DNA of 29,562 nt. Origin: Candidatus Methylomirabilis sp. (GTDB taxonomy: Bacteria; Methylomirabilota; Methylomirabilia; Methylomirabilales; Methylomirabilaceae). The translations under genes and the position numbers were made by a program. The notes beneath the pieces are model-generated. The model saw only the letters and a program-made list of their open reading frames with translations. It was not told the origin of the DNA and ran no database searches. The stretch is taken from positions 1 to 29,562 of the forward strand of contig JBGQJI010000014.1 in assembly GCA_041498975.1 (NCBI GenBank). The letters are read 5' to 3'. Below are positions 3,483 to 26,764 of this stretch, piece after piece. Position 1 is the stretch's first letter, and each line of letters opens with the position of its first letter.

Positions 3483-5009
3483 TCAGGTACTTTTGCGTTG
3501 CACCAGATACAGATAGTAGGTTTCATCGGGAATGATGCTATGGCTGAACTCCGACAGTTTAGAAATGGTCAGGTCAGGTCTATGAGCGAGAAGTCTATAG
3601 TTCAAGACCAACAGAACATCCTTTTTCTCGTGTGTGATGAGTTGACCCACCTTTTCCAGAACTTCAGGGGCATCCAGCCTCTTCCGCTTTCTGTTCCAGA
3701 CGATGAAGCTACCAAATCTGTCACTTTCGGGGTAGTAAATTTTGCTGTTCAGGTAAGCCGATAGAGGGGAGACTGGAGAATCTCTGCTTCCCGCGATGAG
3801 CATATCCCCTGACTGTCGGCTCGCGATGAATCTGGAAGCCTCTTTACTCGCAGAGAAGGGATGCAACACGTCCGTGCCGAATGCAATGAGTCCCGCAGCG
3901 AGATCAGCGTACAGCATCACCATGACGAACTTCTTTCCAACCCGATCGGCGGCTTCGGCAATCGTTGTTGCCAATCCATGAACGAGCCGTGTTTCCGTGT
4001 AGTACTGTGAAATCCACAACGAGGCGACAAACAGGATAAATAAGTGTCCATGATGTGCCAACTTTCCGAAGACCACGGCATATATAAAAGCCAGAAGGCC
4101 AAGGGTTCCGGAAAGGTATAAGAACAACACAACCGGTTTACGGACGAACAGTCCAACCGAGATTGCCAGAAGCCCGAGAGAAATGCCCGCACAAATGTTC
4201 ATTTGTGATCCCAGCGAACCGTCCAGGAGGATGTTGGTATTCCAGAACTGATAGCTCGAAAGGCTTGGTATCGGAATGTAACTCATCCAAACGGTCATGA
4301 GCGTCTTCACCACACTGAATCTATCGGGCCGCGTGACCCAGGTGCCCACAACAGCTCGGTCCGCTGGTGGTAGAATCTGCGCGATGGAGGTCACAATGCC
4401 CAGAGCGAACACAAGGACACTGATGATGAGATCCGATTTCCTCGCGGGTAAGGATCTCCGCATTCCTCCGTCGATCATGCATTCAAATAGCAATGTCAAC
4501 CCGAAACACATGGCCAGAATCAGACCGTACACGCTCGTATTGGCCAACACGAAAAGAATGGACGAGAGGAAAAGGTAACGCTTCGTGCGTGTCTGAAATA
4601 ACGCACAGAAGGAAAAAATGCACAAGATCCCTATCGCATAATTTCTACTGATCACTGCATATTCGTAAAAGGGGAAGTACCCGAAGGAGAATAAGACCTT
4701 CTGGGCGTTCGTGAAAGGTGAGAATCTTGCGAAGATGAAGATGACGGCGGCGGCAATAATCAGATGAGAAACCTGCATCGCTGCCGGATTACGCGTGAAC
4801 CTGGTCAGCAGATACAGAATCGCAAACCACACTCCGGGATGGCTTTCGTATCTGTAGTTGGCGAAGAGGTCCCTAAGAGACGGACTGTCTCTCCCGATGA
4901 GCCATGCCTGGAGTTCGTCTCGCCACATTTCGTGGGTCACGAGACCCAGACAGCCAAGAGACAGGAACACCGAGACCAGCAGCGCCGTGAAGACAGCATC
5001 ATTTCTCAT
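3483..5009 (-). CDS. Multi-pass membrane protein, probable GT-C-fold glycosyltransferase
   Basis: 508 aa with about 10 hydrophobic segments. WRDE acidic motif after TM1 followed by ESHP, typical of GT-C first loops, and a soluble C-terminal domain. Visibly more AT-rich than its neighbours. Confidence 0.7.
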   Translation of the reverse strand: MRNDAVFTALLVSVFLSLGCLGLVTHEMWRDELQAWLIGRDSPSLRDLFANYRYESHPGVWFAILYLLTRFTRNPAAMQVSHLIIAAAVIFIFARFSPFTNAQKVLFSFGYFPFYEYAVISRNYAIGILCIFSFCALFQTRTKRYLFLSSILFVLANTSVYGLILAMCFGLTLLFECMIDGGMRRSLPARKSDLIISVLVFALGIVTSIAQILPPADRAVVGTWVTRPDRFSVVKTLMTVWMSYIPIPSLSSYQFWNTNILLDGSLGSQMNICAGISLGLLAISVGLFVRKPVVLFLYLSGTLGLLAFIYAVVFGKLAHHGHLFILFVASLWISQYYTETRLVHGLATTIAEAADRVGKKFVMVMLYADLAAGLIAFGTDVLHPFSASKEASRFIASRQSGDMLIAGSRDSPVSPLSAYLNSKIYYPESDRFGSFIVWNRKRKRLDAPEVLEKVGQLITHEKKDVLLVLNYRLLAHRPDLTISKLSEFSHSIIPDETYYLYLVQRKST

Positions 5010-8185: not shown

Positions 8186-10477
8186 TCAACGCCGCAAGTA
8201 GCGTGCTCCACGCTCCGGAGGCGGCGCCACCCCGCCGGTCAGCAGTTCGAAAAATAAGTTGACGCTGTTCTCTGACGCCCTCACCCCGGGGATTTCCGAC
8301 AGATTGATGAAATGGACGCCGATCATCCAGCAACAGGTGGCATAGGTGACGACCACATTGTTTTCCAGGCTGACATCCCTGAGAGAATCGTAACGGCCGA
8401 GGTAGTTGATCGCGAGGTTCTTGATCGGCGTGAGAAGAAGGCGGCCCACCACCCCGGAGGTCTCGCGATCGCTGAACGGGCCAGGAAGGCCCATAGTCTC
8501 CCCACCGCGGATGAAACTGTGGGCCAGCTCCACCCGCCCGTACTCGGGATAGGCAACCCGTACCCCCGCCTCGATCCCATCAACCCGATCCTCCTCGGTG
8601 TTGATGGCGACGACTCCATAGAACGCGAGATTCTGAATGGGGGAAGCGCTGAGATCGGCCACCAGGTTCGAAAAGCGGCGCTCCTGAACCCGCGAGAACC
8701 CTGTGGAGAGCCCATTGCGCAGGATCGGGATCGTTGTCGGCTCACGGACCGCCTGGTCGATCCGCTCCGGGGTCAGGGCGTTCAGATAGATATCGGAGAA
8801 TGTCCGCTCTTGGGGGTTCAGGTTGTAACTCTGGCTCAGCGAAAGGGAGAAGACTTCGTTGGTCCGGACGGAGCCATCGGACTCTTTGATCTTGGCCAAC
8901 AGGCGGTTGTTCAGCGAATAGGTGACCCTGTTCTGGGGGCTGATAAAATCGATGCTGTCGAACTGTGGGAGCCCTTCCTGATCGACCGGATTGATGTACC
9001 AGTAGCTCACCCGCGGCTCCACCAGGTGAATCAGCCGATCGACACGGGTGCCCCCGACCTCAAACCTCCTGAAGAATCGAGCCTCCAGGGAGTCCCGAGC
9101 CTCAAAGAGTTCGCGGGTGATCCCACTCTCCTCTCCATCTCCACGCTTCGTGTACGCGGTCTCACGGAAGCCGACCGAGGGGGTCATCGTCGCCCAGGGA
9201 AGCAGGCGCAACGGGGCGGAGAGCTTCGGCGACAGATCCGCGCGGCCACCGTCCGGGACCTCTTTACGTTCCAGGTAGACACCGGACAGGTTCATCTCCA
9301 GAAGGACCGGCAAGCCGAACAGGCGCTGGGGAAATGCCGAAAAACTCAACTCCGGCAGACGGCTGAGGCGGCTATCGCTGGTGTCGGTGGTCAGGGCCCG
9401 GGAGTGATCCGCCATGAGCTGCAGGCCGTAATTCTGCCACAGTTGAGCGAGAAACACTCTTGAGTTGCTGAAGCTCGCCGTCCTCAACGCAGGCGGGGTC
9501 TCGGCGAACTCCCGCTGGATGGTCCGGTCGCTGACGTAGTTGATGTCGGCCTTCAGGCTGAGCTCCGGATTGAATTGCTGATCGTGTTGGGCATAGATAG
9601 TGCCGCGCAGCTCGTCTCCTGGCGCATTCAGCCGATCCTGGATTATCCTGGCATCGATCCATCCCCTCGCCTCGGGCCCCAGGATATACCGGTAGTTGGC
9701 CTCCCCCTCGAAGCCGCGCCTGCCACGGTAGACACCGGTAATGGTGAGGTCCTGGGATTCATCGATGGCCCAGAAGAAGGGCTGCTTGTAGGTGACGCCA
9801 TCCCTGTTACTGTAGCCGACCCGCGGGATCAGGAAACCCGTCCGCCTCGGCCCGAGAGGGTAGAGGAGATAGGGGGCGACGAGCGACGGCAGGCCGCGGA
9901 CCCAGAACGACGCCCATTTCGCCTCGAGATACTCGTCCTGCTCGAGCACCACCTCCTTGGCCCGGACCTCCCAATCAACTCCACCGGGTTCAGGCTGGCA
10001 GATGCGGCAGGTGGTGAAACTCCCCTCGACCAGCCGATAGGTGCGCTCTCCATCCTTGTGGATCTCGACGCCCCGAAACGCGGTGGCCGGAGGGATCGCC
10101 CCCTTGCCCTGGTACATGACGCCGGTGTTGCTCCGGTAGTGATACTCGAACCGTTCACCCTCCAGCCGGCTCGCCCCTTCGATGAGCTGGACCCTTCCTG
10201 TGGCCCTCAGTACCTCTTGGATCTGGTCCAGCTCGACCTCATCGGCGATGAGGGTGCGGTTCTCCATCTGGATGTGGACATCGCCCCTCGCGATCGTGAG
10301 CTTGTCCCGCTCCCGCCGCTCGAGCTCGTTCGCCTCCACCCGAACAGCCGACTTCAGTTCTGTGACGCGGTCGAGCAGATCACGGGATCCGGTGTCCTGG
10401 GCTGAAACCACAGCAATGGAGGACGAGCATGAAAGGAGGAGCAGCGTCAGAAGGATGCGCGGAAGCTGGCGTAGCAT
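8186..10477 (-). CDS. lptD: LPS assembly outer membrane protein LptD
   Basis: Likely start ATG 10477 followed by a signal peptide. OstA-like N-terminal region, FTTC, RRTGFLIP, QPFFWAI and C-terminal CCW, with beta-barrel-like alternation. 763 aa. Confidence 0.9.
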   Translation of the reverse strand: MLRQLPRILLTLLLLSCSSSIAVVSAQDTGSRDLLDRVTELKSAVRVEANELERRERDKLTIARGDVHIQMENRTLIADEVELDQIQEVLRATGRVQLIEGASRLEGERFEYHYRSNTGVMYQGKGAIPPATAFRGVEIHKDGERTYRLVEGSFTTCRICQPEPGGVDWEVRAKEVVLEQDEYLEAKWASFWVRGLPSLVAPYLLYPLGPRRTGFLIPRVGYSNRDGVTYKQPFFWAIDESQDLTITGVYRGRRGFEGEANYRYILGPEARGWIDARIIQDRLNAPGDELRGTIYAQHDQQFNPELSLKADINYVSDRTIQREFAETPPALRTASFSNSRVFLAQLWQNYGLQLMADHSRALTTDTSDSRLSRLPELSFSAFPQRLFGLPVLLEMNLSGVYLERKEVPDGGRADLSPKLSAPLRLLPWATMTPSVGFRETAYTKRGDGEESGITRELFEARDSLEARFFRRFEVGGTRVDRLIHLVEPRVSYWYINPVDQEGLPQFDSIDFISPQNRVTYSLNNRLLAKIKESDGSVRTNEVFSLSLSQSYNLNPQERTFSDIYLNALTPERIDQAVREPTTIPILRNGLSTGFSRVQERRFSNLVADLSASPIQNLAFYGVVAINTEEDRVDGIEAGVRVAYPEYGRVELAHSFIRGGETMGLPGPFSDRETSGVVGRLLLTPIKNLAINYLGRYDSLRDVSLENNVVVTYATCCWMIGVHFINLSEIPGVRASENSVNLFFELLTGGVAPPPERGARYLRR

Positions 10478-10512
10478 CGATAAAGACCCCGGAACAAGTC
10501 CAGAACAACTTT

Positions 10513-10566
10513 GTGGGGGCAGGCTCTTGCGCTGCCCAAGAGACGCCCAGCAAGCAGCGCCCCTTC
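10513..10566. repeat. Degenerate GTAG-type REP doublet (REPIN-like)
   Basis: GTGGGGGCAGGCTCTTGCGCTGCCC followed by an inverted copy reading GAAGGGGCGCTGCTTGCTGGGCG on the minus strand. The latter shares AGGGGCGCTGCTTGCTG with the REP at 14125. Confidence 0.6.
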
Positions 10567-10841
10567 GGGATCCATGCGAGGCAAGTCGCCCTCGCCTTAT
10601 ATCAGACGGGCGCGCCAAAGGCAAGGGGTTTTAGAGAGGCACGGGGAGGCTTCGGACCGCACCCACCGGGTTTACCTCATGTACAGTGTGCTAGAGGGGA
10701 GATTGACGTGGCGAAGAAATCCAGACCAGATATTCTCGTATACTGGACTCTGCGTGAGGGACAGAGAGACCTTTGGTCAATCATCAGGTCCGCGGACGTC
10801 GAGGACATCTGGCCCACGACGAGGGTCATGCGAGCCCGTCC

Positions 10842-11537
10842 CTACGAGATCATCTTTGCGATAGCGAAGGCCGCGGCCGCTGCGAGGCCGCCAATCAGCA
10901 TAGTTTGTAGAGCACCTCGCAAAGGCGCCGCGCCCGTGAAGCGGCCCTTGAAGTAGCCAAATGCAGCCAATGCTGCGAGGGTGACGATCACCGAGAAGAG
11001 CAGCGCCACGCGCGCGCCCGAGAAAACGATGTACGGCCCCAGCGGGATGAATCCTCCGGCGATATAGGCGCCGGCGATCGTCAGCGCACTTGTGAGCGCG
11101 CGCCTCGGATCGGGCTTTTCGAGGCCTAACTCAAAGCGCATCATGAAATCGACCCATGCCTCCGGGCGCCTACACAACGCGTCGACAACGGGCGCGCTTT
11201 CTTCTTCAGTAAGCCCGTAGGACCGAAACACTTCCATCACCTCTGTCGTCTCCTGCGCGGGCCTTTCGCTCACCTCCAGTTGCTCGCGCTCCCGCTCGGA
11301 TTCGTAGTGCTCCGCGTCGTTCCTTCCTGCGAGGTAGCCGCCCAAGCCCATGGCGATCGAACCGGCAGCGACCTCAGCCAGGCCCGCAGTGACGATAATG
11401 CCCGTTGACTCAACGGCGCCGGTGAGCCCTGCCGCGAGCGCAAAGGGGACCGTCAGCCCGTCTGACATCCCGATGACGATATCTCTTACCATATCGCTGG
11501 CGGTGAAGTGCCGCTCAATGTGCGGTGTCTGTGGCAT
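10842..11537 (-). CDS. VIT1/CCC1 family iron/manganese transporter
   Basis: Motifs RDIVIGMSDGL, AGSIAMGLGGYL, Glu-rich cytoplasmic segment, MMRFELGL and GGFIPL. Confidence 0.93.
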   Translation of the reverse strand: MPQTPHIERHFTASDMVRDIVIGMSDGLTVPFALAAGLTGAVESTGIIVTAGLAEVAAGSIAMGLGGYLAGRNDAEHYESEREREQLEVSERPAQETTEVMEVFRSYGLTEEESAPVVDALCRRPEAWVDFMMRFELGLEKPDPRRALTSALTIAGAYIAGGFIPLGPYIVFSGARVALLFSVIVTLAALAAFGYFKGRFTGAAPLRGALQTMLIGGLAAAAAFAIAKMIS

Positions 11538-11617
11538 CGCTACCCTCCCCCTTTACGCTTCTCTTGCGCCTTGTCCATCGGGCGCCAGAATGCCTGCAAG
11601 CTAGACTGCAATGTCGA

Positions 11618-11645
11618 TTGACAACTCACAATGCATATGCAATCT
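11618..11645 (+). promoter_or_regulatory. Putative TA promoter with palindromic operator
   Basis: Perfect TTGACA at 11618, palindrome TGCATATGCA at 11632-11641, and a weak -10 (CAATCT) ending 7 nt before the toxin GTG. Confidence 0.5.
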
Positions 11646-11652
11646 TATATGC

Positions 11653-11952
11653 GTGTATGTGATACGCTTTGCCGTGTCGGTTGTGAGGGACTTGAAAAGG
11701 GTCTCACCATATCATCGAAACATTATCCTAGATGCCATTGAGGCGCAACTTTCTCACGAACCGACGTCGCCAGCGAAGCACAGGAAGTTATTGATAAACT
11801 TGGTACCGCCTTGGGATGCCGTGCCGCCGGTATGGGAGTTGCGCGTTGGGGAGTTTCGAGTGTTTTACGACGTCGCGGAGGCTGAACAGATAGTTGATGT
11901 CCGGGCAATTCGGAAAAAGCCCCCGGGCAAGAGGACGGAGGAGATTCTATGA
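11653..11952 (+). CDS. Type II TA toxin, RelE/ParE family
   Basis: Motif WELRVGEFRVFYDV...VRAIRKK. Likely GTG start at 11653 (99 aa); the ORF extends upstream to 11611. Confidence 0.88.
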   Translation: MYVIRFAVSVVRDLKRVSPYHRNIILDAIEAQLSHEPTSPAKHRKLLINLVPPWDAVPPVWELRVGEFRVFYDVAEAEQIVDVRAIRKKPPGKRTEEIL

Positions 11953-12197
11953 AAACTGTTCCAGTACGCGATCTACAGAAAAAGCTGAAACGATGCATCG
12001 ACGAAGCGCAAGAAGGCCGCGTGCTCATCACCCGTCGAGGAAAGCCTGCAGCGCTCCTTGTTGGGGTTGAGGGCAAGGACTGGGAAACCGTCATTCTCGA
12101 GACCGACCCCACCTTCTGGAAGCTCATCGAGGAACGCCGCAAAGAACCCACCATCTCTTTCAAGGAGCTGAAGGCCCGCCATAACCGAAAGCGCTGA
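11949..12197 (+). CDS. Type II TA antitoxin, Phd/YefM family
   Basis: MKTVPVRDLQKKL...VLITRRGKPAALLV, the Phd/YefM N-terminal signature. ATGA overlap with the toxin. Confidence 0.9.
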   Translation: MKTVPVRDLQKKLKRCIDEAQEGRVLITRRGKPAALLVGVEGKDWETVILETDPTFWKLIEERRKEPTISFKELKARHNRKR

Positions 12198-12281
12198 GCA
12201 ACTTTTTATTGATTAACGCGAGCCTCTCAAAACTCGTTAAAGGGGCCGAGCCCCTCAACGTCGTAAAGTTGGGCCACGGCC

Positions 12282-12968
12282 CTACACGGGATGAGCGGGT
12301 GTCGGCTGCAAGGGTCTAGTCTCAACGAGGTGGAAGATGCCAAAAAAGAGTCGCTGGGCGGCGATCAGGTTCAGCCCGGCTTGGCGGACGAGGTCGAGCG
12401 GCTCACGGTTCCAACGACAGCCGAGCGTCTTCGCATGGCGATCGGCCCTGCGATCCTGCCAGCGTCCGAGCCACTCCAGGTCGCTGCGACCATGCTCCAG
12501 GAGGAGGATGCGGCCATCTGCCCGACACACGCGGACCATCTCGCGGAGCGCCCCCGCCGGATCGCGAAACGTACACATGGAAAGGGAGGAAACGACCGTG
12601 TCGAAACACTGGTCGGGAAAGGCGAGCCCTTCAGCGTCCATTACCAGGAACGGGATGGTCATCCCCAGGCGAGCCGCCCGCTTGCGGGCGACTTCTAACA
12701 TCGCCGGACTGAAGTCCACGGCGGCGATCTTACAGGTGCTGGGGTAGTGTCGAAGGTTCCTCCCCGTTCCGGCGGCAATTTCCAGCACCTTCCCTGATGC
12801 TCGCTCCAGCAGTCTGCGCCGGAGTCTTCTCATGCCCAGGACCTCAGGGATCCCATCCATCAGATCATACCACCGGGCGAACCTCTCATACTTTTGCCTG
12901 ATCTCCTCCTTGAGAGCCGGCGAAGCTTCACGAACCTTATTCAAGATCGAACTTTCCTTTCCTGACAT
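12282..12968 (-). CDS. Class I SAM-dependent methyltransferase (PmtA/UbiE-like)
   Basis: Motifs VLEIAAGTG, DFSPAML, DAEGLAFPDQCFDTVV and RVCRADGRILLLEH. Confidence 0.9.
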   Translation of the reverse strand: MSGKESSILNKVREASPALKEEIRQKYERFARWYDLMDGIPEVLGMRRLRRRLLERASGKVLEIAAGTGRNLRHYPSTCKIAAVDFSPAMLEVARKRAARLGMTIPFLVMDAEGLAFPDQCFDTVVSSLSMCTFRDPAGALREMVRVCRADGRILLLEHGRSDLEWLGRWQDRRADRHAKTLGCRWNREPLDLVRQAGLNLIAAQRLFFGIFHLVETRPLQPTPAHPV

Positions 12969-13015
12969 GGCAGCCTACAACACAGAATCGAACGGGGATG
13001 TTTGCTGTGTGTGAA

Positions 13016-13693
13016 CTACGATTTGTTTGATATTCCTAAATTGCATTCAGAACACAATGTCTGTAAGTTTTCGCTCTTAGTTTCTCCGCCCTGGGCCCAA
13101 GGTAGAATGTGGTCGATCTGTAATTCAACTCCAATCCCAGTAGCTGGAGAGCGACCACACCTGCTACACCGAAATCCATCTCCTTTCAAAATCTCATATC
13201 GAAGTCCCAAAGAGATTCCACGTTTAGTTTTTCGTTCATTAGGAGGAAGAAGAAGGTTTACAGGTATGCTTCTTGTCTCCGCTTTGATATCTTCTATCGA
13301 CAACCCCGATTTCCGGGATAGAAACTCCAGGCAAGCCTGATACCAGCTATCGAACTCGTTCAGATATCGGGAGGATGATATCGGAGATAGCGGCTGCTTC
13401 ATCTCCTTGGCACGAGGTTGTCGACCGAGTTTCTCCCGGACCATTTCAAGGTTCTCAAGCAGTAAGTATTTGTCGTTGGTTCTATTGTATCTGGAACCTG
13501 ATCCTGCTTCCTTGCAGAGATTTGACCAACTTCCGAAATGACGGCCAATCGTCGTTTAAGAAATCCTAAACCATTTGCAGAAATCTCTGGCGGCCACATA
13601 CTTAAGTTTTTTCCGCAATGCATATGCCTGCAGTGCAGTAAGGACCTCCTCTTTCGTATATGGATTAAACCTCTTTATTGTGTAATCAGTCAC
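13016..13693 (-). pseudogene. HNH endonuclease with two N-terminal homing-endonuclease-associated repeats, interrupted by an in-frame TAA
   Basis: GTG 13693 reads MTDYTIKRFNPYTKEEVL...FRIS*TTIGRHFGSW and continues in frame into the 13016..13444 ORF (CSRCG, DHILP, NLQTLCSECN). The stop is at 13556-13558, codon 46. Confidence 0.8.
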
Positions 13694-14118
13694 AGGCTAT
13701 CCATTTCAAGCATTGAGGACAGCTTGAGGTGACCTAAAACGGGTGGATGAAATCGTTGATTCACGACATACGGCACGGGCGATTGAGAGGAATCTCTCCC
13801 ACCGTTTATGAAAGACACTCTCCCGTTCGTGTTTACGTTTGACCCGAGGTCCGAGATGGCCTGCTCACGAATATGGCCAGCCAACGGTCAAATTCGTCTT
13901 CACCCTCACGCCAGGGATTTTCCCGGTCAAGCTCCCAGCGTAGGGGATTGGTTGCAATATATTCCCGAATTCGGTTAAATGATTCTTCGCTTCGGATGAC
14001 ATGTTCGTAATAGCCCCTCTGCCAGAGGGGCTGCCCCGAACGCGACAAGAGCCGGTTCACTTGGATCGCGGATATCGATTTGAACGCACGCAGCACCTTG
14101 GACAACGTGGTGGATCCG

Positions 14119-14177
14119 AACCCTGTAGGGGCGCTGCTTGCTGCGCCCTTGACGGGCGGGGCAAGCCCTTCCCTTGC
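14119..14177. repeat. REP doublet inside the RAYT coding sequence
   Basis: AACCCTGTAGGGGCGCTGCTTGCTGCGCCCTT followed by a degenerate inverted copy (minus strand GCAAGGGAAGGGCTTGCCCCGCCC). Confidence 0.75.
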
Positions 14178-14448
14178 GATAACAAGAATCCCGTGGATGT
14201 GGTTCGGCATTACTACCAAAGCATCCAACTCAGCCGTTGGAAACCGCTCAGGAAACCCATCCCACACTGTCTGCACTACTCGACCCACATTGCTCACGCG
14301 CATCTTCCCATCCACCACATCGCCAAACAGACACTCTCGGTTCTGGGTACATATAGTTACAAAATAGGAACCTTCGCTGGAATAATCGAATCCCCGCAGG
14401 CGAAGGGGCCGGCGGCGGAACGCAGAGAGGCGACTTGGCTTCCTCCTG

Positions 14449-14480
14449 AGGGGCGCAGCAAGCGGCGCCCCTACAGGGTT
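14449..14480 (-). repeat. GTAG-type REP at the 5' end of the RAYT
   Basis: Minus strand AACCCTGTAGGGGCGCCGCTTGCTGCGCCCCT, 30/32 identical to the plus-strand copy at 14119-14150. Forms an AGGGGCG/CGCCCCT hairpin. Confidence 0.82.
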
Positions 14481-14527
14481 GACCTGTTGCCTGGTTCCAC
14501 GGATGGGAAGAAGCTGGAGCATTTCAA

Positions 14528-20296: not shown

Positions 20297-20881
20297 CTAT
20301 TGGTAGATCTCCTTCAGCTTCTTCAAGATCGCTTTACCCCGGACCACCACCTCATCATGCTGGTTTTTGCACTGCAAGCCGACCGTGAGCACGCCCTTGT
20401 CGTCGATCTCCTCGACCACGCCGACAGCCGTGATCCGGTCCCCCGCGCGGACGGGGCCTGTGAACTCCATCTCCTGGCGAAGGTAGACGCACCAGGGGCA
20501 CAGCTCGGCGAGGACCCCGGAGAACAGGCTCGCGGTGTGGAACCCGTGGGCGATCCGTCCCTTGAAGCGGGTCTTCTGGGCAAGCGCCTCATTGAAGTGC
20601 AGCGGGTTGAAATCGTTGGAGAGGAAGCCGAAGTAGAGGGTCCCGGATTCGGTCATCGTCTTCGTGTGCGCGAGCGTCTTGCCCACATACAGATCGGAAG
20701 ACTTGGGCGACCGGGTCCCCTTGCCGTACCCGTTCAGCTCGATGCCGTAGAGGGATGCGAACAGCCGTCCGACGGCCTCTGGGCTCTCCCGGTGCCAGTC
20801 GAGCATCCCGCTCATCATCTTGTCGAACAGGTACATCGGCCCGAACGCCCAGTTCGACCACACCTCCGCGAACTGCCTCAT
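20297..20881 (-). CDS. MaoC family dehydratase / (R)-specific enoyl-CoA hydratase (PhaJ/CroR-like) with N-terminal extension
   Basis: Catalytic DFNPLH motif, plus FKGRIAHG and FTGPVRAGD. GGAGG SD upstream. Confidence 0.88.
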   Translation of the reverse strand: MRQFAEVWSNWAFGPMYLFDKMMSGMLDWHRESPEAVGRLFASLYGIELNGYGKGTRSPKSSDLYVGKTLAHTKTMTESGTLYFGFLSNDFNPLHFNEALAQKTRFKGRIAHGFHTASLFSGVLAELCPWCVYLRQEMEFTGPVRAGDRITAVGVVEEIDDKGVLTVGLQCKNQHDEVVVRGKAILKKLKEIYQ

Positions 20882-21273: not shown

Positions 21274-21474
21274 TTAGCCCTGCCCTGCCTTGATGGCCGA
21301 TACCGTCCGCACATAGCCCAATGTCCGCAAGAGCTTCTCCCCTTCAGAGGATTTGAGGAAATTCAGCAGATAGTCGCTGAGGTTTCGGGCCATTTCTGTC
21401 GAGAGATATGCCGGGTGACCCGTCGCGCACCAGATCGTGATCTTGTGATAGAGGCTCTGGACATTTCCTTCCAT
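21274..21474 (-). CDS. Hypothetical small protein
   Basis: 66 aa from ATG 21474 with a purine-rich SD region. Co-oriented, with its stop 26 nt before the Lrp/AsnC start. Confidence 0.55.
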   Translation of the reverse strand: MEGNVQSLYHKITIWCATGHPAYLSTEMARNLSDYLLNFLKSSEGEKLLRTLGYVRTVSAIKAGQG

Positions 21475-21591
21475 GGCTCCGTCCCGTCTCCTCTCTTCTG
21501 AGTTCTGTTCCGCGGCGCCCGCGCCGTCAAGGTGAACCACGCTTCCGGCTATGCGGGCGGGCAGTCAAGCAGGGGACATGCGGCTTCAATC

Positions 21592-21620: not shown

Positions 21621-21786
21621 GCCTTTTTGCACGCATCGCGTTATCTTGCAGCATTCGTGTTAAATCGTTCCCTTTTCTGATGACCTTGGACCTGATGACA
21701 GATCGGCTCGTCATAACGTGGCTCGCCCGTCGGCGGGCCTCTCCGCTCAAGAGGATTCTGGGTCGAATGGGGCATACTCGGTAACG

Positions 21787-21831
21787 CAACAAAAGGCGCC
21801 CCGGCGAAATGGGCCTTACCGCACGGGGCGC
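21787..21831 (-). terminator. Putative Rho-independent terminator after the mutase
   Basis: Minus strand stem GCGCCCCG...CGGGGCGC with a large loop, followed by CTTTTGTT. A second hairpin, GCGTATCG/CGATACGC, lies at 21840-21860. Confidence 0.55.
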
Positions 21832-21860
21832 ATCCCATCGCGTATCGGGCTTCGATACGC

Positions 21861-23531
21861 CTACAGTCCCGTCGGCGATTTGTACTCGCCGAACACTTCC
21901 CGAAATACGCCGCAGACTTCGCCTACGGTCGCGTACGCCTTGACGGCATCGAGGATCGGCGGCATCAGGTTCTCATCACCAAGAGCAGCCTCCCGCAACC
22001 GTTGGAGAGCCGAAGACACGGCACGATTGTCCCTCTCACGACGGAGAAGCTGCAGACTCCTCACCTGTGCAGTCTCCGCTTCCGGATCAGTTCGATAGAG
22101 CTGCAAAGGCTGGGGTTTACCCTCGTCCTGGAATCGGTTGACCCCAACAACGACCCGTGTGCCGGCCTCGACCTCTTGCTGGTGCGCGTACGCCTCTTCT
22201 TGAATCGCCCGTTGCATGTAGCCACGCTCGATCGCTTCCACGGCTCCCCCGGTGGTCTCGATCGCCTCGAGTTCGTCGGTCGCCCGGCGCTCGAGCTCGT
22301 CGGTGAGAGCCTCCACATAGTAGGAGCCGGCCATCGGGTCCACCGTGTCCGCCGCCCCGCTTTCATGGGCGATGATCTGTTGAGTCCGAAGCGCGATCCG
22401 CTGGGCCCGCTCCGTCGGGATCGCCAGCGCCTCATCGAAGCAGGAGAGCGCCATCGACTGAACGCCGCCCAGGACTGCGGCCAGCGCCTGGACCGCCGCC
22501 CGGACGATATTGTTCTCCGGCTGCTGGGCAGTCAGCGTGGAGCCGCCGGTCTGGGTATGGGTCCGGAGCATCCAGGATCGTGGATCCTTCGCGCCGAAGC
22601 GCCCTCGCATGATCTTGGCCCACATTCGACGTAGCGCACGATACTTGGCGATCTCCTCGAAGAAGTGGTTGTGGGTGTTGAAGATCCAGGAAATCCGTGG
22701 CGCAAAGGCATCGACGGGCAAGCCGCCGCGTCTGGCAGCCTCGACATAGGCGATGGCGTTGGCAAAGGTGAAAGCGATCTCCTTCACGGCCGAGGCCCCG
22801 GCCTCCCTGATGTGATAGCCGCTGATGCTGATCGGGTTCCAGCGCGGAACCTGGTCTGCACAGTAGGCGATCAGGTCGGCTGCCAATCGGAGGGAAGGGC
22901 GCGGTGGAAAGATGTAGGTGCCCCTGGCCACGTACTCTTTCAGGACATCGTTCTGGACGGTCCCGGAGATCTTCGAAAGCCGCACCCCCTGCATCTCTGC
23001 AACAGCCACATACAGCGCCAGCAGGACCGCCGCCGGCGCGTTGATGGTCATGGAGGTGGTGACCCGATCCAGAGGGATGCCGTCGAAAAGCACTTCCATG
23101 TCCCGGAGGGAGTCGATCGCGACCCCCACCTGTCCAACTTCCCCGGCAGCCAGAGGGTGGTCGGAATCGAGCCCCATCTGCGTCGGCAAGTCGAAGGCAA
23201 CGGAGAGGCCGGTCTGGCCCTCCTTCAAGAGGTATCGAAATCGCTCGTTCGACTCCTTCGCGGTGCCGATCCCCGCGTACTGCCGCATTGTCCAGAACTG
23301 TCCCCGGTACATGGTTGGGTAGATGCCCCTGGTGTAGGGATACTGGCCGGGGAAGCCCACCGCTTCGAGATAATCCCTAGCCTCCGCGTCCTCCGGAGTG
23401 TAGAGCCGCTTCACCGGGAGACCCGAGGGCGTGGTGAACTCCGGCATTCGCTCTCCGGCCCGCTCAAGAGTGGGCTTCAGCGTCTGCTCCTCCCATGCTT
23501 CTCTCGCGGCCTGCAGCTTCTTTTTATCCAT
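21861..23531 (-). CDS. B12-dependent acyl-CoA mutase, substrate-binding large subunit (methylmalonyl-CoA mutase family)
   Basis: Motifs [47 protein letters not shown] and QQPENN. No DxHxxG B12-binding domain. Confidence 0.93.
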
Positions 23532-23598
23532 CTGGTGTTCCTCTTTGAACGAGGGGGTTCAGTGTATAGCGCAAAAAGAATGCAAGAAGGCGCTCTCT

Positions 23599-23633
23599 TA
23601 GACCCTCTACCCTATACCCTATTCCCTACACCC
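23599..23633 (+). repeat. Heptamer tandem repeat (TAnACCC-like, 5 units)
   Basis: TAGACCC TCTACCC TATACCC TATTCCC TACACCC. Confidence 0.7.
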
Positions 23634-23640
23634 TGTCTCT

Positions 23641-24804
23641 TCAGCCTTCGAGCAGTCGCTTCGCGATCACGTCTCGCTGGATCTCGCTCGTTCCCTCAAA
23701 GATGCGAAAGACCCGGGCGTCCCGCCAGTAGCGCTGAACCGGGAACTCCTGAGAGTAGCCGTAGCCGCCGAATACCTGCATCGCCTCCGAGGTGACGCGT
23801 TCGGCCATCTCGGCGGCGAACACCTTCGCCATCCCGGCCTCGAGATCACAGCGCGCCCCGCGGTCTTTCATCTCGCACGCGTAATAGGTGAGACGTCTCG
23901 CCGCCTCGATCTCGGTGGCCATATCGGAGAGCTTGTGCCGAATGGCCTGGAAGGAGGCGATCGGCTGGCCGAACTGCACGCGCTCCTTTGAATACTTCAA
24001 CGCCGCCTCGAAGGCCGCCTGTGCGACGCCGACCGCCCTGGCCGCCGTCTGGATCCTGGCCGACTCGTAGGTGGCCATCAACTGGTAGAATCCCTTGTTC
24101 TCGACGCCGCCGATCAAGTTCTTGGCCGGCGCCGGGCAGTCCTGAAGGCTCAGCGAGAAGGAGCGCATCCCATGGTAGCCGATCGTCTTGATCGGCTCGC
24201 CGGAGATGGCCGGGGGGTTGAATCCATCGCCCGGCTCCTTCTCCACCAGAAAGATGCTCAGCCCCTTGTGTCGTTTGGCAGTGTCGGGATCGGTCCTGGC
24301 CATGAGGGTGAGGACGTGCGCCCGGTTGGCGAAGGTGCACCAGGTCTTGGCCCCGCTTATCAGGTAGGTGTCGCCATGCCGTCTCGCCCGTGTCTTGATC
24401 GAGGCGGTGTCCGATCCCGCGTCCGGCTCCGTAAAGGCCGCCGCTGTGAGTATCTCCCCCGATGCGATCTTTGGCAAGAATCGCTGCTTCTGTTCCTCGG
24501 TCCCGTGGGCCAGCAGGAGCGTCCCGGTGATGAGGCTGCGGGTTGCGACAGAGCCAACGCTCAACCACCCGCGCGACAGCTCCTCGGTCACGATCGCCAG
24601 GCTGACGTAGTCCATCCCCGCCCCGCCGTACTCGGGGGGGAAGGTCAGGCCGAAGTAGCCCAGGTCGGCCATTTTCTTGATGAGGCCGGGCGGGATCTCC
24701 TTGTTATCCTGATCGTACGGGTCGGCGATGGGAACGACTTCTTCTTCGGCGAACTGGCGGACCGCCCGCCGTACCTCTTCATGCTCTGATGACAGTGAAG
24801 ACAC
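23641..24804 (-). CDS. Acyl-CoA dehydrogenase, probably (2S)-methylsuccinyl-CoA dehydrogenase-like
   Basis: Motifs EELSRG, FTEPDAGSD, ESARIQTAARAVGVAQ and IFEGTSEIQ. GTG 24804 has an AGGAG SD; ATG 24837 is an alternative start. Lies between ccr and the mutase. Confidence 0.88.
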   Translation of the reverse strand: MSSLSSEHEEVRRAVRQFAEEEVVPIADPYDQDNKEIPPGLIKKMADLGYFGLTFPPEYGGAGMDYVSLAIVTEELSRGWLSVGSVATRSLITGTLLLAHGTEEQKQRFLPKIASGEILTAAAFTEPDAGSDTASIKTRARRHGDTYLISGAKTWCTFANRAHVLTLMARTDPDTAKRHKGLSIFLVEKEPGDGFNPPAISGEPIKTIGYHGMRSFSLSLQDCPAPAKNLIGGVENKGFYQLMATYESARIQTAARAVGVAQAAFEAALKYSKERVQFGQPIASFQAIRHKLSDMATEIEAARRLTYYACEMKDRGARCDLEAGMAKVFAAEMAERVTSEAMQVFGGYGYSQEFPVQRYWRDARVFRIFEGTSEIQRDVIAKRLLEG

Positions 24805-24905
24805 GTTGAAGTCTCCTGGACCAGATGAGAGCCGCATCGCCTCGACATCCTCGAGTGGCGGGGCGAGCGGAACGGCTACAAGCGAACTGAATGACGTGCC
24901 AGATA

Positions 24906-25022
24906 AGGTTCCAAGTTCCGAGTGCCGAGTTCCAGGTGGCTAAACCGGAGTTGAAGATCTCTCAAGGCAAGCTTCTAATTTGGAACCAGGAACTTGGAAC
25001 TGCAAAGCCGAACCTGGAAGTG
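24906..25022. repeat. Inverted heptamer tandem arrays
   Basis: AGGTTCC AAGTTCC GAGTGCC GAGTTCC, then the reverse-complement units GGAACCA GGAACTT GGAACTG. Confidence 0.7.
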
Positions 25023-25076
25023 CGCAGCTCAGTCGCCCGCAATGATCATGAGAAAGCGTCGTACGCAACCGTTTGC

Positions 25077-26333
25077 CTATGCCGCGACCGCGAACTTCCG
25101 CGTTTCCTCCAAGTTTCGCAGCCCTGTCGCCGGGGTGTTCACCAGGAGGGCCATGTTGCCTGGCGGATGCTGATTCTTCCACATCATGTCATGAGCTTTC
25201 GGAATGCCGTCAAACTCGAACACTTCAGACATGCATGGCAGCACCCGTCCGTCCATCACCGAGTGGTTCGCGGCATCCGCCTGCATCAGCGTGGCGAAGT
25301 GGCTGCCCTGTATCCGTTTCTGCCGCATCCAGACATACGCGGCATCAAAGGTCAGGTTGAACCCCGTCGTCCCCGCGCAGAAGACGACCATGCCACCTCG
25401 CCGGCAGACAAAAGCGCTGACGGGAAACGTCTGCTCACCAGGGTGCTCGAAGACGATGTCGGGATCCACTCCTTTGCCGGTGATCTCCCAGATCGCCTTC
25501 CCGAATCGCTGGACCTCCTTCAGGTAGGCACCGTAGGCGGTGCGATCCTTGGTAGATGGAAGCTGTCCCCAGCAGGTAAATTTCGTCCGGTTGATGTACG
25601 CCTTTGCCCCGATCTCCATGGACCACTTGCCCCGCTCTTCCGTGGAGACCACCGCGATGGCGTTGGCGCCCGCCGCCTTGATGAGTTGAACCGCCATCGA
25701 CCCGAGGCCGCCGGACCCGCCCCAGACCAGCACGTTCATGGCCGGCTGCAGCGTGTGAGGCGGGTGGCCGTACAGCATGCGGAATGCGGTCGCCAGGACC
25801 AGCATGTAGCATCCGGCCTGCTCCCAGCTCAGGTGCTTCGGCTTGGGAGCCAGTTGCTGGGCCTGGACGCGCGTGAACTGGGCGAAGGCCCCGTCGGGCG
25901 TCTCGTATCCCCAGATCTTCTGTTCACGACACAGCATCGGGTCGCCACCGTTGCAGTGGTGGCACTGTCCGCAGGTGTGGTTGCAGTGGACGACGACCTC
26001 GTCGCCGACGTTCCACCTCTTTACAGCGCTCCCGACCTTCCAGACGACCCCCGCCGCATCGCTACCGGCGACATGGTACACGCGCTTGTGCACGTCGATG
26101 GGCGACAGCGGCTGCCCCATGCCCGCCCATATCCCATTGTAGTTGACGCCTGAGGCCATCACCATCACCAGCACTTCATCGGGAGCGATCTCCGGAACAT
26201 CCACGATCTCCCGTTGGAAGGATTGCAAGGGCGGGCCGTGCCGCTCCTTCCGAATGACCCAGGCATGCATCTTCTTGGGCACGACGCCCAATTCTGGGAT
26301 CTGGCCCAGTTCGCAGAGCTCCGACGCTATCAT
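25077..26333 (-). CDS. ccr: Crotonyl-CoA carboxylase/reductase
   Basis: Motifs HAWVIRKERHG, GVNYNGIWA, HVAGSDAAG, IWGYETPDG, VWGGSGGLG, FEHPG and WMRQKRIQGSHFA. Confidence 0.93.
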   Translation of the reverse strand: MIASELCELGQIPELGVVPKKMHAWVIRKERHGPPLQSFQREIVDVPEIAPDEVLVMVMASGVNYNGIWAGMGQPLSPIDVHKRVYHVAGSDAAGVVWKVGSAVKRWNVGDEVVVHCNHTCGQCHHCNGGDPMLCREQKIWGYETPDGAFAQFTRVQAQQLAPKPKHLSWEQAGCYMLVLATAFRMLYGHPPHTLQPAMNVLVWGGSGGLGSMAVQLIKAAGANAIAVVSTEERGKWSMEIGAKAYINRTKFTCWGQLPSTKDRTAYGAYLKEVQRFGKAIWEITGKGVDPDIVFEHPGEQTFPVSAFVCRRGGMVVFCAGTTGFNLTFDAAYVWMRQKRIQGSHFATLMQADAANHSVMDGRVLPCMSEVFEFDGIPKAHDMMWKNQHPPGNMALLVNTPATGLRNLEETRKFAVAA

Positions 26334-26587: not shown

Positions 26588-26764
26588 GAAGTGTCATTGC
26601 GAGGAGCGAAGCACCGAAGCAATCTGACCCGAAGGGTCATTCCGAGCGAAGCGAGGAATCTCACCGGGATTGCGCAGCCTGTCCCGAGCCTTGCCGAGGG
26701 AGCGGCGCCTCGCAACGACACTTCGTGTCGGATTGCCACGCCCCCGTTGGTCGCTCGCAATGAC
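26588..26764. repeat. Composite palindromic element (GTCATTGCGAG...CTCGCAATGAC family)
   Basis: GAAGTGTCATTGCGAGG (26588) pairs with CCTCGCAACGACACTTC (26708), 16/17. A second right arm CTCGCAATGAC is at 26754. Nested units GTCATTCCGAGCGAAGCGAGGAATCT and GTCCCGAGCCTTGCCGAGGG. Confidence 0.78.

Follow-up and report, generated by a model that had tools for sequence, protein, structure and literature searches.

The question raised by this locus is whether ethylmalonyl-CoA can be converted by a mutase that does not belong to the canonical ethylmalonyl-CoA mutase (Ecm) family. The analyzed stretch of DNA, called the window below, comprises 29,562 nt of contig JBGQJI010000014.1 (GCA_041498975.1). 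It is part of a metagenome-assembled genome (MAG) of an uncultured sediment bacterium from the candidate division NC10 (G000), which has a size of 2.68 Mb, consists of 241 contigs and is 84.9% complete. The module under study is located at positions 21861-26333 and contains three genes. The gene ccr (25077-26333) encodes Ccr, the crotonyl-CoA carboxylase/reductase, which has 418 aa. The next gene (23641-24837) encodes a short acyl-CoA dehydrogenase (ACAD) similar to methylsuccinyl-CoA dehydrogenase (Mcd), with 398 aa as the longest open reading frame (ORF). The third gene (21861-23531) encodes the large subunit of an acyl-CoA mutase ('C14-type'), which has 556 aa, lacks a B12 domain, and is the candidate ethylmalonyl-CoA mutase. 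The original prediction, made from the window sequence, had described the three genes as co-oriented, and all three ORFs were indeed found on the minus strand. The gene identities, the conserved linkage, the joint presence or absence in related genomes, the lack of a canonical Ecm and a signature of a remodelled active site were observed, and together they suggest that the 556-aa protein is probably the catalytic large subunit of a non-canonical, two-subunit ethylmalonyl-CoA mutase that depends on adenosylcobalamin.

The window mutase gave full-length matches to PF01642 (743.6 bits, cut-off 22.1) and TIGR00641 (765.2 bits, cut-off 303.8), and neither PF02310 nor TIGR00640 matched, in agreement with the absence of a B12-binding domain. 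With the NCBIfam model NF006944, which represents a fused form of 721 aa, the score stayed below the cut-off (632.2 bits, cut-off 876), and this was also the case for the paralog encoded on contig C48, which is of the methylmalonyl-CoA mutase (Mcm) type (671 bits). The best solved structure was 4r3u, the large subunit of the 2-hydroxyisobutyryl-CoA mutase HcmA (572.8 bits, residues 3-552), and the Propionibacterium Mcm 1req reached 478 bits. The identity was 61% to the C48 paralog, 59% to a further paralog on C20, and 41-48% to canonical Ecm. The 120 closest listed proteins were 74-95% identical and all derived from metagenomes; the names among them, where given, were candidate division NC10, Methylomirabilis or Methylomirabilales, and the named contigs agreed. 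Proteins of the window-mutase type are labelled methylmalonyl-CoA mutase in the source databases.

Residues Y85, R203, Y239/H240, Q327 and E367 of the window mutase align to Tyr89, Arg207, Tyr243/His244, Gln330 and Glu370 of the Propionibacterium shermanii enzyme. Because the Tyr/Arg pair for carboxylate binding is kept, the window mutase is expected to accept substrates that carry a free carboxylate, while the C20 paralog is not. The pair does not separate Mcm from Ecm, since canonical Ecm has both residues. Glu370 has been described to contact the adenosyl group in bacterial Mcm (PMC4413051).

An identity as canonical Ecm was rejected. The canonical Ecm/MeaA proteins of Rhodobacter sphaeroides, Methylorubrum extorquens and Streptomyces are reportedly ethylmalonyl-CoA mutases, a finding said to go back to Erb and co-workers in 2008. 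They share with the window mutase the superfamily PF01642, the proposed reaction, the partners Ccr, Mcd and epimerase, and the equivalents of Tyr89, Arg207, His244, Gln330 and Glu370; in both, the sites of Phe92 and of His-Thr-Asn(366) are remodelled. In contrast to the window mutase, they consist of one chain (655-699 aa) to which a B12 domain is fused, and they form a long-branched clade. All nine aligned Ecm genes carry the motifs RTYAGH (RTYSGH in three), QVNSLGL (QVNSLNL in one) and QLPAWNEA. The original prediction had named the first two of these motifs as typical of Ecm, and both were present in fused Ecm proteins encoded beside ccr in Alphaproteobacteria and Myxococcota. The window mutase is unfused, has none of the three motifs and falls outside the Ecm clade (support 100%); the original reading of it as a non-canonical mutase was thus supported. 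It has YAG(I/M/A), SWIF, TQTGGS and ALSCFDEA instead. Among 80 loci retrieved from named genomes, 47 showed next to ccr a fused mutase gene (655-699 aa, B12 domain included); most of these loci are from Pelagibacteraceae and hence not independent, the rest being from Rhodobacteraceae, Roseovarius, Hyphomicrobiales, Paremcibacter, Paracoccaceae and three Myxococcota.

The two-subunit Mcm of the archaeal/Firmicute type, of which the C48 paralog and a Brevibacillus laterosporus gene beside mce and a carboxyltransferase gene are examples, are split into a large subunit (about 555 aa) and a small one (about 140 aa). They are 61-63% identical to the window mutase and have all its catalytic and carboxylate-binding residues. 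The window mutase differs from them by seven otherwise invariant positions and by its neighbors mcd and ccr. An identity as isobutyryl-CoA or 2-hydroxyisobutyryl-CoA mutase did not fit, because the window mutase retains both Tyr and Arg. HcmA (4r3u) shares the split architecture and keeps FFF and HTN, but it has Ile and Gln at the positions of Tyr85 and Arg203 of the window mutase, and therefore the substrate class differs.

For the active-site comparison, 10 Mcm-type rows (four fused ScpA from plasmids, five split proteins in carboxylase/epimerase context, and one split Streptomyces protein with Tyr/Arg), 19 rows of the window clade and nine canonical Ecm were used. Among the 146 columns that are invariant in the 10 Mcm-type rows, seven were altered in each of the 19 rows of the window clade: F88 is replaced by I, M or A, F282 by W, F283 by I, A300 by L, H361 by A, T362 by L and N363 by S. 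The window mutase itself has I88, W282, I283, L300, A361, L362 and S363. In all nine Ecm 34 of the 146 columns were altered, and five of these are common to both groups: F88, A300 and the triplet 361-363. Ecm has His at the first of them and Gln-Leu-Pro at the triplet, with the change of T362 to L being identical. F88 lies three residues after the Tyr89 equivalent, and the triplet lies four residues before E367, the Glu370 equivalent. The strongest change is that of HTN to ALS just ahead of the adenosyl-binding Glu. The extra methyl group of ethylmalonyl-CoA is located on the carbon that loses a hydrogen to the adenosyl radical, and remodelling beside the adenosyl site would therefore be expected. 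Three rows of the isobutyryl-CoA mutase (Icm)/Hcm type keep F, FF and HTN, so the signature is not a general feature of split mutases.

The motifs that had been quoted for the window mutase (YAGI, SWIFNTH and LRTHTQTGG among them) were all present in the protein, and their interpretation had to be changed in two points. LRTH is not diagnostic, because the fused Mcm of Sinorhizobium also has it. Furthermore, the changes were said to be mostly from Phe to smaller residues; F282 is replaced by Trp instead, and the change of HTN to ALS had been overlooked. In a library of representatives, none of the 150 carried the full signature, and the 481-aa fragment P0269 shares W-I-L. The library was clustered at 50% identity and its best representative was 56% identical, so that the clade was merged with Mcm types and the library is silent about the spread of the clade.

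Does the genome contain another enzyme for the same step? PF01642 was found in three genes of G000 only, i.e., in the window, on C48 and on C20. The C48 cluster has the order carboxyltransferase, biotin carboxylase, biotin carrier, mutase and methylmalonyl-CoA epimerase, and it is, judged from its sequences, the route from propionyl-CoA to succinyl-CoA, with the paralog as its Mcm. The residues of this paralog (RQYAGF, ARGTY, SFFF, SLHTNS) represent the pattern of split and fused Mcm. The Mcm context, i.e., propionyl-CoA carboxylase and methylmalonyl-CoA epimerase, thus belongs to the C48 paralog and is absent at the window mutase. The C20 cluster contains genes for a crotonase, an ACAD, EtfB, EtfA, an Fe-S oxidoreductase, a mutase (10313-12007 of locus L001), a B12 small subunit (12058-12474), a second ACAD and MeaB. 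This mutase has RMFAGF and IAQKEY, i.e., Phe and Gln at Tyr89 and Arg207 of Mcm, and no carboxylate Arg. Phe (or Ile) and Gln at these positions are what we take to be the pattern of isobutyryl-/hydroxyisobutyryl-CoA mutases, and HcmA shows such residues in the alignment. The C20 paralog therefore appears to be Icm-like, although the label methylmalonyl-CoA mutase would be expected for it, and as it lacks the carboxylate Arg, no other candidate for the Ecm step was found. A query with canonical Ecm revealed nothing above 45% identity in G000, G046, G044, G009 and G053 (85-99% complete); the matches were the known paralogs. The four relatives are 94-99% complete. The separate Mcm and the missing canonical Ecm are both in accordance with the proposed role.

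The small subunit on C20 has 138 aa and the sequence DGHDRG (motif DxHxxG). A search with TIGR00640 or PF02310 detected one mutase-type small-subunit gene each in G000, G046, G044, G053 and G008, always beside the Icm-like paralog. The numbers of large subunits were three in G000, G046 and G044 and two in G053 and G008. As the sole small subunit is encoded beside the Icm-like paralog, the window mutase, like the Mcm-type paralog, must use a subunit that is encoded elsewhere. In G009 two small subunits were found for four large ones; one small subunit for two to three large subunits was found in the other five of six genomes.

The linkage was analyzed in a phylum sample of 201 genomes, and proteins at least 71% identical to the window mutase were counted as orthologs. 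Because related genomes are not independent, the counts are to be read as a pattern, without the weight of a statistical test. None of the claims depends on any single one of the unpublished genomes, which are G151 in the tallies of the sister family f2 and G047, G029, G100 and G057 in those of the phylum. Orthologs were found in six of the 18 genomes of the genus (G000 counted), in 14 of the 15 genomes of f2 (two partial matches) and in one of the 15 genomes of family f5. Outside these groups the best matches were 58-64% identical. The Mcd-like gene was located directly upstream of the mutase gene in all 17 ortholog loci. The gene ccr adjoined in four of the 17, namely three loci of the genus and that of G053 (f5); two further loci of the genus stop at or within mcd. 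Thus, the constant partner of the mutase gene is mcd, not ccr. The original expectation that mutase orthologs are linked to ccr therefore holds for co-occurrence, not for adjacency.

The neighbors varied between the families. In G053 a sigma-54 activator gene is followed by ccr, a gene for a KASIII-type condensing enzyme, mcd, the mutase gene and a gene for a fusion protein of HpcH/CitE and MaoC type of 1128 aa. In the f2 loci mcd and the mutase gene are followed by genes for a thiolase and a PhaC-like hydrolase, and a crotonase and a 3-hydroxyacyl-CoA dehydrogenase are encoded alongside. In both cases the neighbors are enzymes of the steps that flank the mutase reaction in the ethylmalonyl-CoA pathway. 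The FabH/KASIII-type enzyme between ccr and mcd was seen in f5 at L048 (7651-8703) and L053 (7942-9009; NCBIfam); presumably it might make acetoacetyl-CoA from acetyl-CoA and malonyl-CoA, like NphT7, which is speculation on our part.

Within the genus, ccr (92-93% identity) was present in G000, G041, G046, G071, G097 and G121, the mutase ortholog in G000, G041, G046, G068, G071 and G121, and a lyase/MaoC fusion in G000, G041, G046, G068 and G121. The mutase gene and ccr thus occur together in five genomes, and the two mismatches, G068 and G097, are 81-82% complete with contigs that stop at or inside mcd. Eleven of the 18 genomes lack the mutase gene, ccr and the fusion, and they include all seven that are 99-100% complete. 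The distribution of the window mutase is therefore accessory, while the Mcm-type paralog is retained also in genus members without the module. In f2, all 14 genomes of genus g2 have the fusion, and a close ccr (72-77%) was found in seven of the 15 family members, with only a homolog at 53-55% in three. In f5 ccr was found at 82-86% in four genomes and the mutase gene in G053 only. A more distant homolog of the Ccr family (46-53% identity) was observed in 49 of 126 genomes of family f9; at three f9 loci (L056, L057, L063) it lies beside a luciferase-like monooxygenase gene with no mutase gene adjacent, and an AMP-dependent ligase is encoded nearby at two of them.

PmoA gave no match in four module-bearing genomes of the genus (G000, G046, G121, G041; 85-94% complete), and it matched in both module-free genomes tested (G008, G003; 99-100% complete). 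The large subunit of RuBisCO was detected in all five relatives tested (G046, G121, G041, G008, G003) and was not found in G000. The ethylmalonyl-CoA module may therefore mark a non-methanotrophic 'Methylomirabilis' lineage. It would separate this lineage, which carries the pathway and lacks pmoA, from the methane oxidizers of the same genus, and this bears on the livelihood of bacteria that are abundant in sediment and groundwater.

The partner genes were characterized in the same way. The product of ccr passed the cut-off of the NCBIfam equivalog TIGR01751 (562.8 bits, cut-off 378.55). Its best solved structure is 4gi2, the crotonyl-CoA carboxylase/reductase of M. extorquens (650.5 bits), and the octenoyl-CoA enzyme CinF (4a0s) reached only 248 bits. 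Orthologs that were 92-93% identical were found in five other genomes of the genus. Outside NC10, the most similar ccr (71% identity) belongs to a Myxococcota MAG (L074, 8001-12027), where canonical fused ecm and meaB follow; thus, the NC10 gene has as its nearest kin a ccr accompanied by the canonical mutase gene.

The dehydrogenase contains four ACAD Pfam domains and did not reach the cut-off of any NCBIfam equivalog. Its orthologs start about 13 codons inside the longest ORF. The best solved structure was 6es9 (401.6 bits, aligned to residues 157-551 of 6es9), which is described as the (2S)-methylsuccinyl-CoA dehydrogenase of Paracoccus denitrificans (PdMCD; PMC5798300). According to the same source, Arg252, Arg376 and Arg421 bind the carboxylate, Ala285 and Phe287 form the methyl pocket, Glu535 is the catalytic base, and an N-terminal extension of about 170 residues takes the place of the dimer-dimer interface, PdMCD being a dimer (PMC5798300). 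The equivalents of Arg252, Arg421, Ala285, Phe287, Ser248, Thr418 and Glu535 are kept in the window protein and in seven NC10 orthologs (8/8), and those of Arg252, Arg421, Ala285, Phe287 and Glu535 are kept also in four of four canonical Mcd rows. In the two other ACADs of the genome none of the arginines and neither Ala285 nor Phe287 is present; the catalytic Glu is kept, as in any ACAD. Canonical Mcd genes beside ccr in other phyla encode 546-563 aa, with 151-177 extra N-terminal residues. The window protein thus agrees with PdMCD in these five residues and differs from it in lacking the extension and in having His at the position of Arg376. Judged from these residues, it belongs only partly to the Mcd family and is best named a short Mcd-like enzyme.

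The remaining steps of the pathway are represented as follows. Beside Ccr and the Mcd-like enzyme of the window, G000 encodes the epimerase, the carboxylase subunits and the Mcm-type mutase on C48, and homologs of thiolase, crotonase and 3-hydroxyacyl-CoA dehydrogenase are also present. Mesaconyl-CoA hydratase and the lyase steps are represented only by a candidate fusion protein of 1058 aa on contig C79 (L153, 6987-10163, minus strand), which contains two lyase regions of HpcH/CitE type and MaoC regions. Its best solved relatives are malyl-CoA/beta-methylmalyl-CoA lyases (weak, E 1e-8 to 1e-12) and (R)-enoyl-CoA hydratases. It is a candidate beta-methylmalyl-/malyl-CoA lyase and mesaconyl-CoA hydratase, possibly with thioesterase activity. 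The 1128-aa fusion of a relative (L048, 1161-4547, minus strand) is 34% identical over the full length, and the phyletic pattern of the fusion matches that of the ccr/mcd/mutase module. The isocitrate lyase family gave a partial match of 58 bits only, in a frame of 337 aa, which is no proof that the glyoxylate shunt is missing in G000.

The ethylmalonyl-CoA pathway is a known route for the assimilation of acetate, and from these genes the following version of it can be proposed. Ccr would carboxylate crotonyl-CoA reductively to (2S)-ethylmalonyl-CoA, and a homolog of methylmalonyl-CoA epimerase (C48) would provide the 2R form. The window mutase, together with the B12 small subunit encoded in trans on C20 (DxHxxG, beside MeaB), would then shift the thioester carbon and yield methylsuccinyl-CoA, which the adjacent short Mcd would oxidize to mesaconyl-CoA. 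Hydration and cleavage by the 1058-aa fusion of malyl-CoA lyase, CitE and MaoC regions (C79) would give glyoxylate and propionyl-CoA, and the latter could be converted to succinyl-CoA via the separate cluster of carboxylase, epimerase and Mcm-type mutase. Substrate, direction, sharing of the small subunit and functions of the fusion protein are what we infer from the gene set. On a broader scale, the chances are a little below even that the non-methanotrophic Methylomirabilales run the ethylmalonyl-CoA pathway with alternative enzymes throughout: an unfused Ecm that shares one small subunit with Mcm and an Icm-type mutase and has its pocket remodelled where that of canonical Ecm is altered as well (at the Phe that follows Tyr89 and at the triplet His-Thr-Asn preceding Glu370), a short Mcd that is presumably tetrameric like ordinary ACADs, and a single lyase/hydratase polypeptide of 1058-1128 aa, possibly including a thioesterase.

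Several observations weigh against the assignment as ethylmalonyl-CoA mutase. The substrate is assigned from gene context only, and the roles of Tyr89, Arg207, Tyr243/His244, Gln330 and Asn366 in carboxylate binding and catalysis are those that we assume for them. In the 11 f2 loci ccr lies outside the fetched stretch and is there encoded elsewhere or was not found, and in four mutase-bearing f2 genomes (68-93% complete) no ccr was detected at E<=1e-90. Conversely, a mutase ortholog was not found in three ccr-bearing f5 genomes, which are fragmented and 82-93% complete; in two of the three the ccr contig ends at or just past ccr or mcd. G000 itself is 85% complete, so that an unseen gene is possible in it, and one small-subunit gene was found for its three large subunits. 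In the Mcd-like proteins of NC10 (385-398 aa) the N-terminal extension is absent, and the Arg376 equivalent is His in eight of eight rows. Last, the overlap of the signature with Ecm, which speaks for the assignment (hypergeometric P 0.008), was judged by a test that treats three adjacent columns as independent and uses few rows (10 Mcm, 9 Ecm), with the groups fixed before the count.

The first alternative to be weighed is that the protein acts on another carboxylated acyl-CoA or in the catabolic direction, i.e., from methylsuccinate, mesaconate or itaconate via methylsuccinyl-CoA and ethylmalonyl-CoA to crotonyl- or butyryl-CoA, or that it converts longer 2-alkylmalonyl-/alkylsuccinyl-CoA esters, in the way suggested for MatB/ActD or for the anaerobic breakdown of alkanes. 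The pocket positions are indeed very diverse in the family, and dozens of residue combinations that keep Tyr and Arg are found among the 150 library representatives. In f2 the gene pair lies beside genes for thiolase, PhaC-like and beta-oxidation-type proteins, and ccr is absent from the locus. The mutase reaction is reversible, and its direction can thus not be read from the genes. A published two-subunit mutase has been proposed to act on hexylmalonyl-CoA (PMC5719088). On the other hand, Ccr is of the primary-metabolism type (650 bits for the M. extorquens enzyme versus 248 bits for CinF), the partner dehydrogenase retains the small Ala/Phe methyl pocket and carboxylate arginines of methylsuccinyl-CoA dehydrogenase, and the co-occurring lyase/hydratase fusion suits C5 chemistry, and thus another substrate or direction is unlikely.

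Even less probable is that the protein is a second Mcm isozyme for the propionyl-CoA branch and that another protein or a promiscuous Mcm catalyzes the ethylmalonyl-CoA step. It would explain why all residues for carboxylate binding and catalysis are kept (Tyr85, Arg203, Tyr239/His240, Gln327, Glu367), it is in line with the database annotation, and the identity to the Mcm-type paralog is as high as 61%. Yet a paralog with unaltered signature is already encoded beside propionyl-CoA carboxylase and epimerase, and the genus members without the module still hold two large-subunit paralogs of about 60% identity. In addition, the seven positions that are invariant in the 10 Mcm rows, fused as well as split, are altered in 19 of 19 clade members, the fixed neighbor consumes methylsuccinyl-CoA and not succinyl-CoA, and no other candidate for the Ecm step was found in the genome. 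A function as ethylmalonyl-CoA mutase is therefore preferred to both alternatives.

A separate question is whether this function arose twice, because the original prediction had called the protein an independently evolved C5 mutase. The window clade was monophyletic (SH-like approximate likelihood ratio test, SH-aLRT, 99), and the Ecm clade (nine rows, support 100) excluded it. It is thus safe to say that the window clade is outside the canonical Ecm family. The phylogeny neither shows nor rejects an independent origin. The LG+C20 PMSF tree joined the clade to canonical Ecm with an ultrafast bootstrap of 76 and an SH-aLRT of 48, and a tree in which it was held with the two-subunit Mcm/Icm/Hcm group was as likely (delta log-likelihood (lnL) -0.29, P of the approximately unbiased test (p-AU) 0.51). 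When the seven signature columns were removed, the join to Ecm was lost; in the best quick tree the clade grouped with the two-subunit mutases (SH-aLRT 72), its junction with Ecm was 3.7 lnL worse and not rejected (p-AU 0.27), and a join to fused ScpA was rejected (p-AU 0.026). From the sequences, an independent evolution of the Ecm function is plausible. The competing view, which concerns the origin only, is that the clade is a slowly evolving unfused sister of canonical Ecm, that the function arose once, and that the fused, fast-evolving form is derived. The position of the clade on the Ecm side of the branch in the PMSF tree is in its favor, as is the alteration of five of the seven signature positions also in Ecm, one of them to the same residue. 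A single origin is nevertheless somewhat unlikely: the branch is weakly supported, the two-subunit placement is equally likely and is obtained when the signature columns are left out, the identity is 59-61% to the paralogs versus 41-48% to Ecm, and the long Ecm branch can attract others. Taken as a whole, the original interpretation is partly supported.

The reaction and the pathway are already known, and so is the idea that split mutases of the HCM/Mcm-like type can be part of Ccr-based routes (MatB/ActD, PMC5719088). MatB and ActD of matlystatin and actinonin biosynthesis are described there as two-subunit mutases of the HCM subclass that act alongside an epimerase and a homolog of Ccr in a route called 'EMC-like' (ethylmalonyl-CoA-like) (Leipoldt et al. 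2017, PMC5719088). Hexylmalonyl-CoA is proposed as their substrate, and the support given consists of gene deletions and labelling, with no in vitro assay; the actinonin cluster has no small-subunit gene, which is encoded elsewhere (PMC5719088). The likeness to the window mutase thus comprises the two-subunit mutase in a Ccr route and, for actinonin, the distant small-subunit gene. The difference is that MatB and ActD belong to actinomycete secondary metabolism; the likeness refers to their published description. In a literature search whose coverage mostly did not extend to subscription journals and whose sources were partly accessible, no split Ecm in primary metabolism and no such mutase or pathway in Methylomirabilota, NC10 or Rokubacteria was found.

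If the proposed function is true, it would have several consequences. With a second form of the enzyme, the pathway would be called differently in Methylomirabilota and perhaps in other groups. To our knowledge, one fused clade is the only known source of ethylmalonyl-CoA mutase, and therefore annotation pipelines score the pathway as incomplete where that clade is missing. An Ecm specificity that resides in about seven residues of the well-studied Mcm scaffold would give the engineering of acyl-CoA mutases a direct handle and a minimal set of residues that change specificity, and nature would provide an example of a B12 small subunit shared by as many as three large subunits. The enzymes are also relevant to synthetic designs for CO2 fixation that are based on the chemistry of Ccr and Ecm.

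The borders of the transcription unit were described by the original prediction as a putative promoter and a terminator, and only the latter part found support. A terminator-like, GC-rich hairpin followed by a U-run is located 3' of the stop codon of the mutase gene (21784-21843, minus strand). The fold of 21775-21866 has -41 kcal/mol (z -2.62), and 2 of 200 shuffles folded equally well; the consensus scan did not call the hairpin, because its loop is too long. The same scan called no sigma-70-like promoter upstream of ccr, and the sole hairpin called there (26546-26520, minus strand) resembles an intrinsic terminator with a 12-bp stem, eight G-C pairs and a T-run. It closes the upstream gene mlaC and forms the 5' border of the ccr unit. 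An exact search of the window for the 10-base sigma-54 word TGGCAC-N5-TTGC gave no match, which carries little weight because just 0.03 matches would be expected by chance. Scans of the window for Rfam families and tRNAs were empty, and thus no cobalamin riboswitch was found.

About 1 kb downstream of the mutase gene a MaoC-like (R)-specific enoyl-CoA hydratase of 194 aa is encoded (20297-20881, minus strand; PF01575, E 3.7e-20), with a promoter-like site at 20978-20950 in the consensus scan. This single-domain protein is a possible accessory enzyme for the conversion of 3-hydroxybutyryl-CoA to crotonyl-CoA. The MaoC-like stretch is kept downstream of the mutase gene in four loci of the genus, where it was detected via an ORF on the opposite strand. 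Between the mutase gene and the MaoC-like gene an unexplained ORF of 88 aa was seen (21274-21540).

Contigs from three other sediment metagenome runs had identical DNA and spanned the mutase/mcd and mcd/ccr junctions; therefore, the gene arrangement is not an assembly artefact. The spacer between ccr and mcd contains an imperfect inverted repeat with arms of 24 nt at 24908-24931 and 24977-25000 that are 79% complementary. Contigs of three DNA runs (X3, X4, X6) join position 26612 to 24907 with 19 foreign letters in between. This joint abuts the inverted repeat and represents a related population without ccr and its leader between mlaC and mcd; reads were aligned at 90% likeness, so that these contigs may come from relatives and not from the same strain. 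Short contigs of the RNA-library run X24 (soil, oligo-dT) were 90-98% identical across all three genes, and they were not counted as expression, because carry-over of DNA is possible and contigs cannot show transcripts.

Two further observations concern other parts of the window. The region 13001-14522 has a G+C content of 46%, compared to about 61% elsewhere in the window, and borders an ORF of 229 aa with a weak match to an IS200-like Y1 transposase (E 3.6e-5). In addition, an ORF of 508 aa without a Pfam match is present at 3483-5009 on the minus strand, in a stretch with 51% G+C and a strong AT skew of 0.24.

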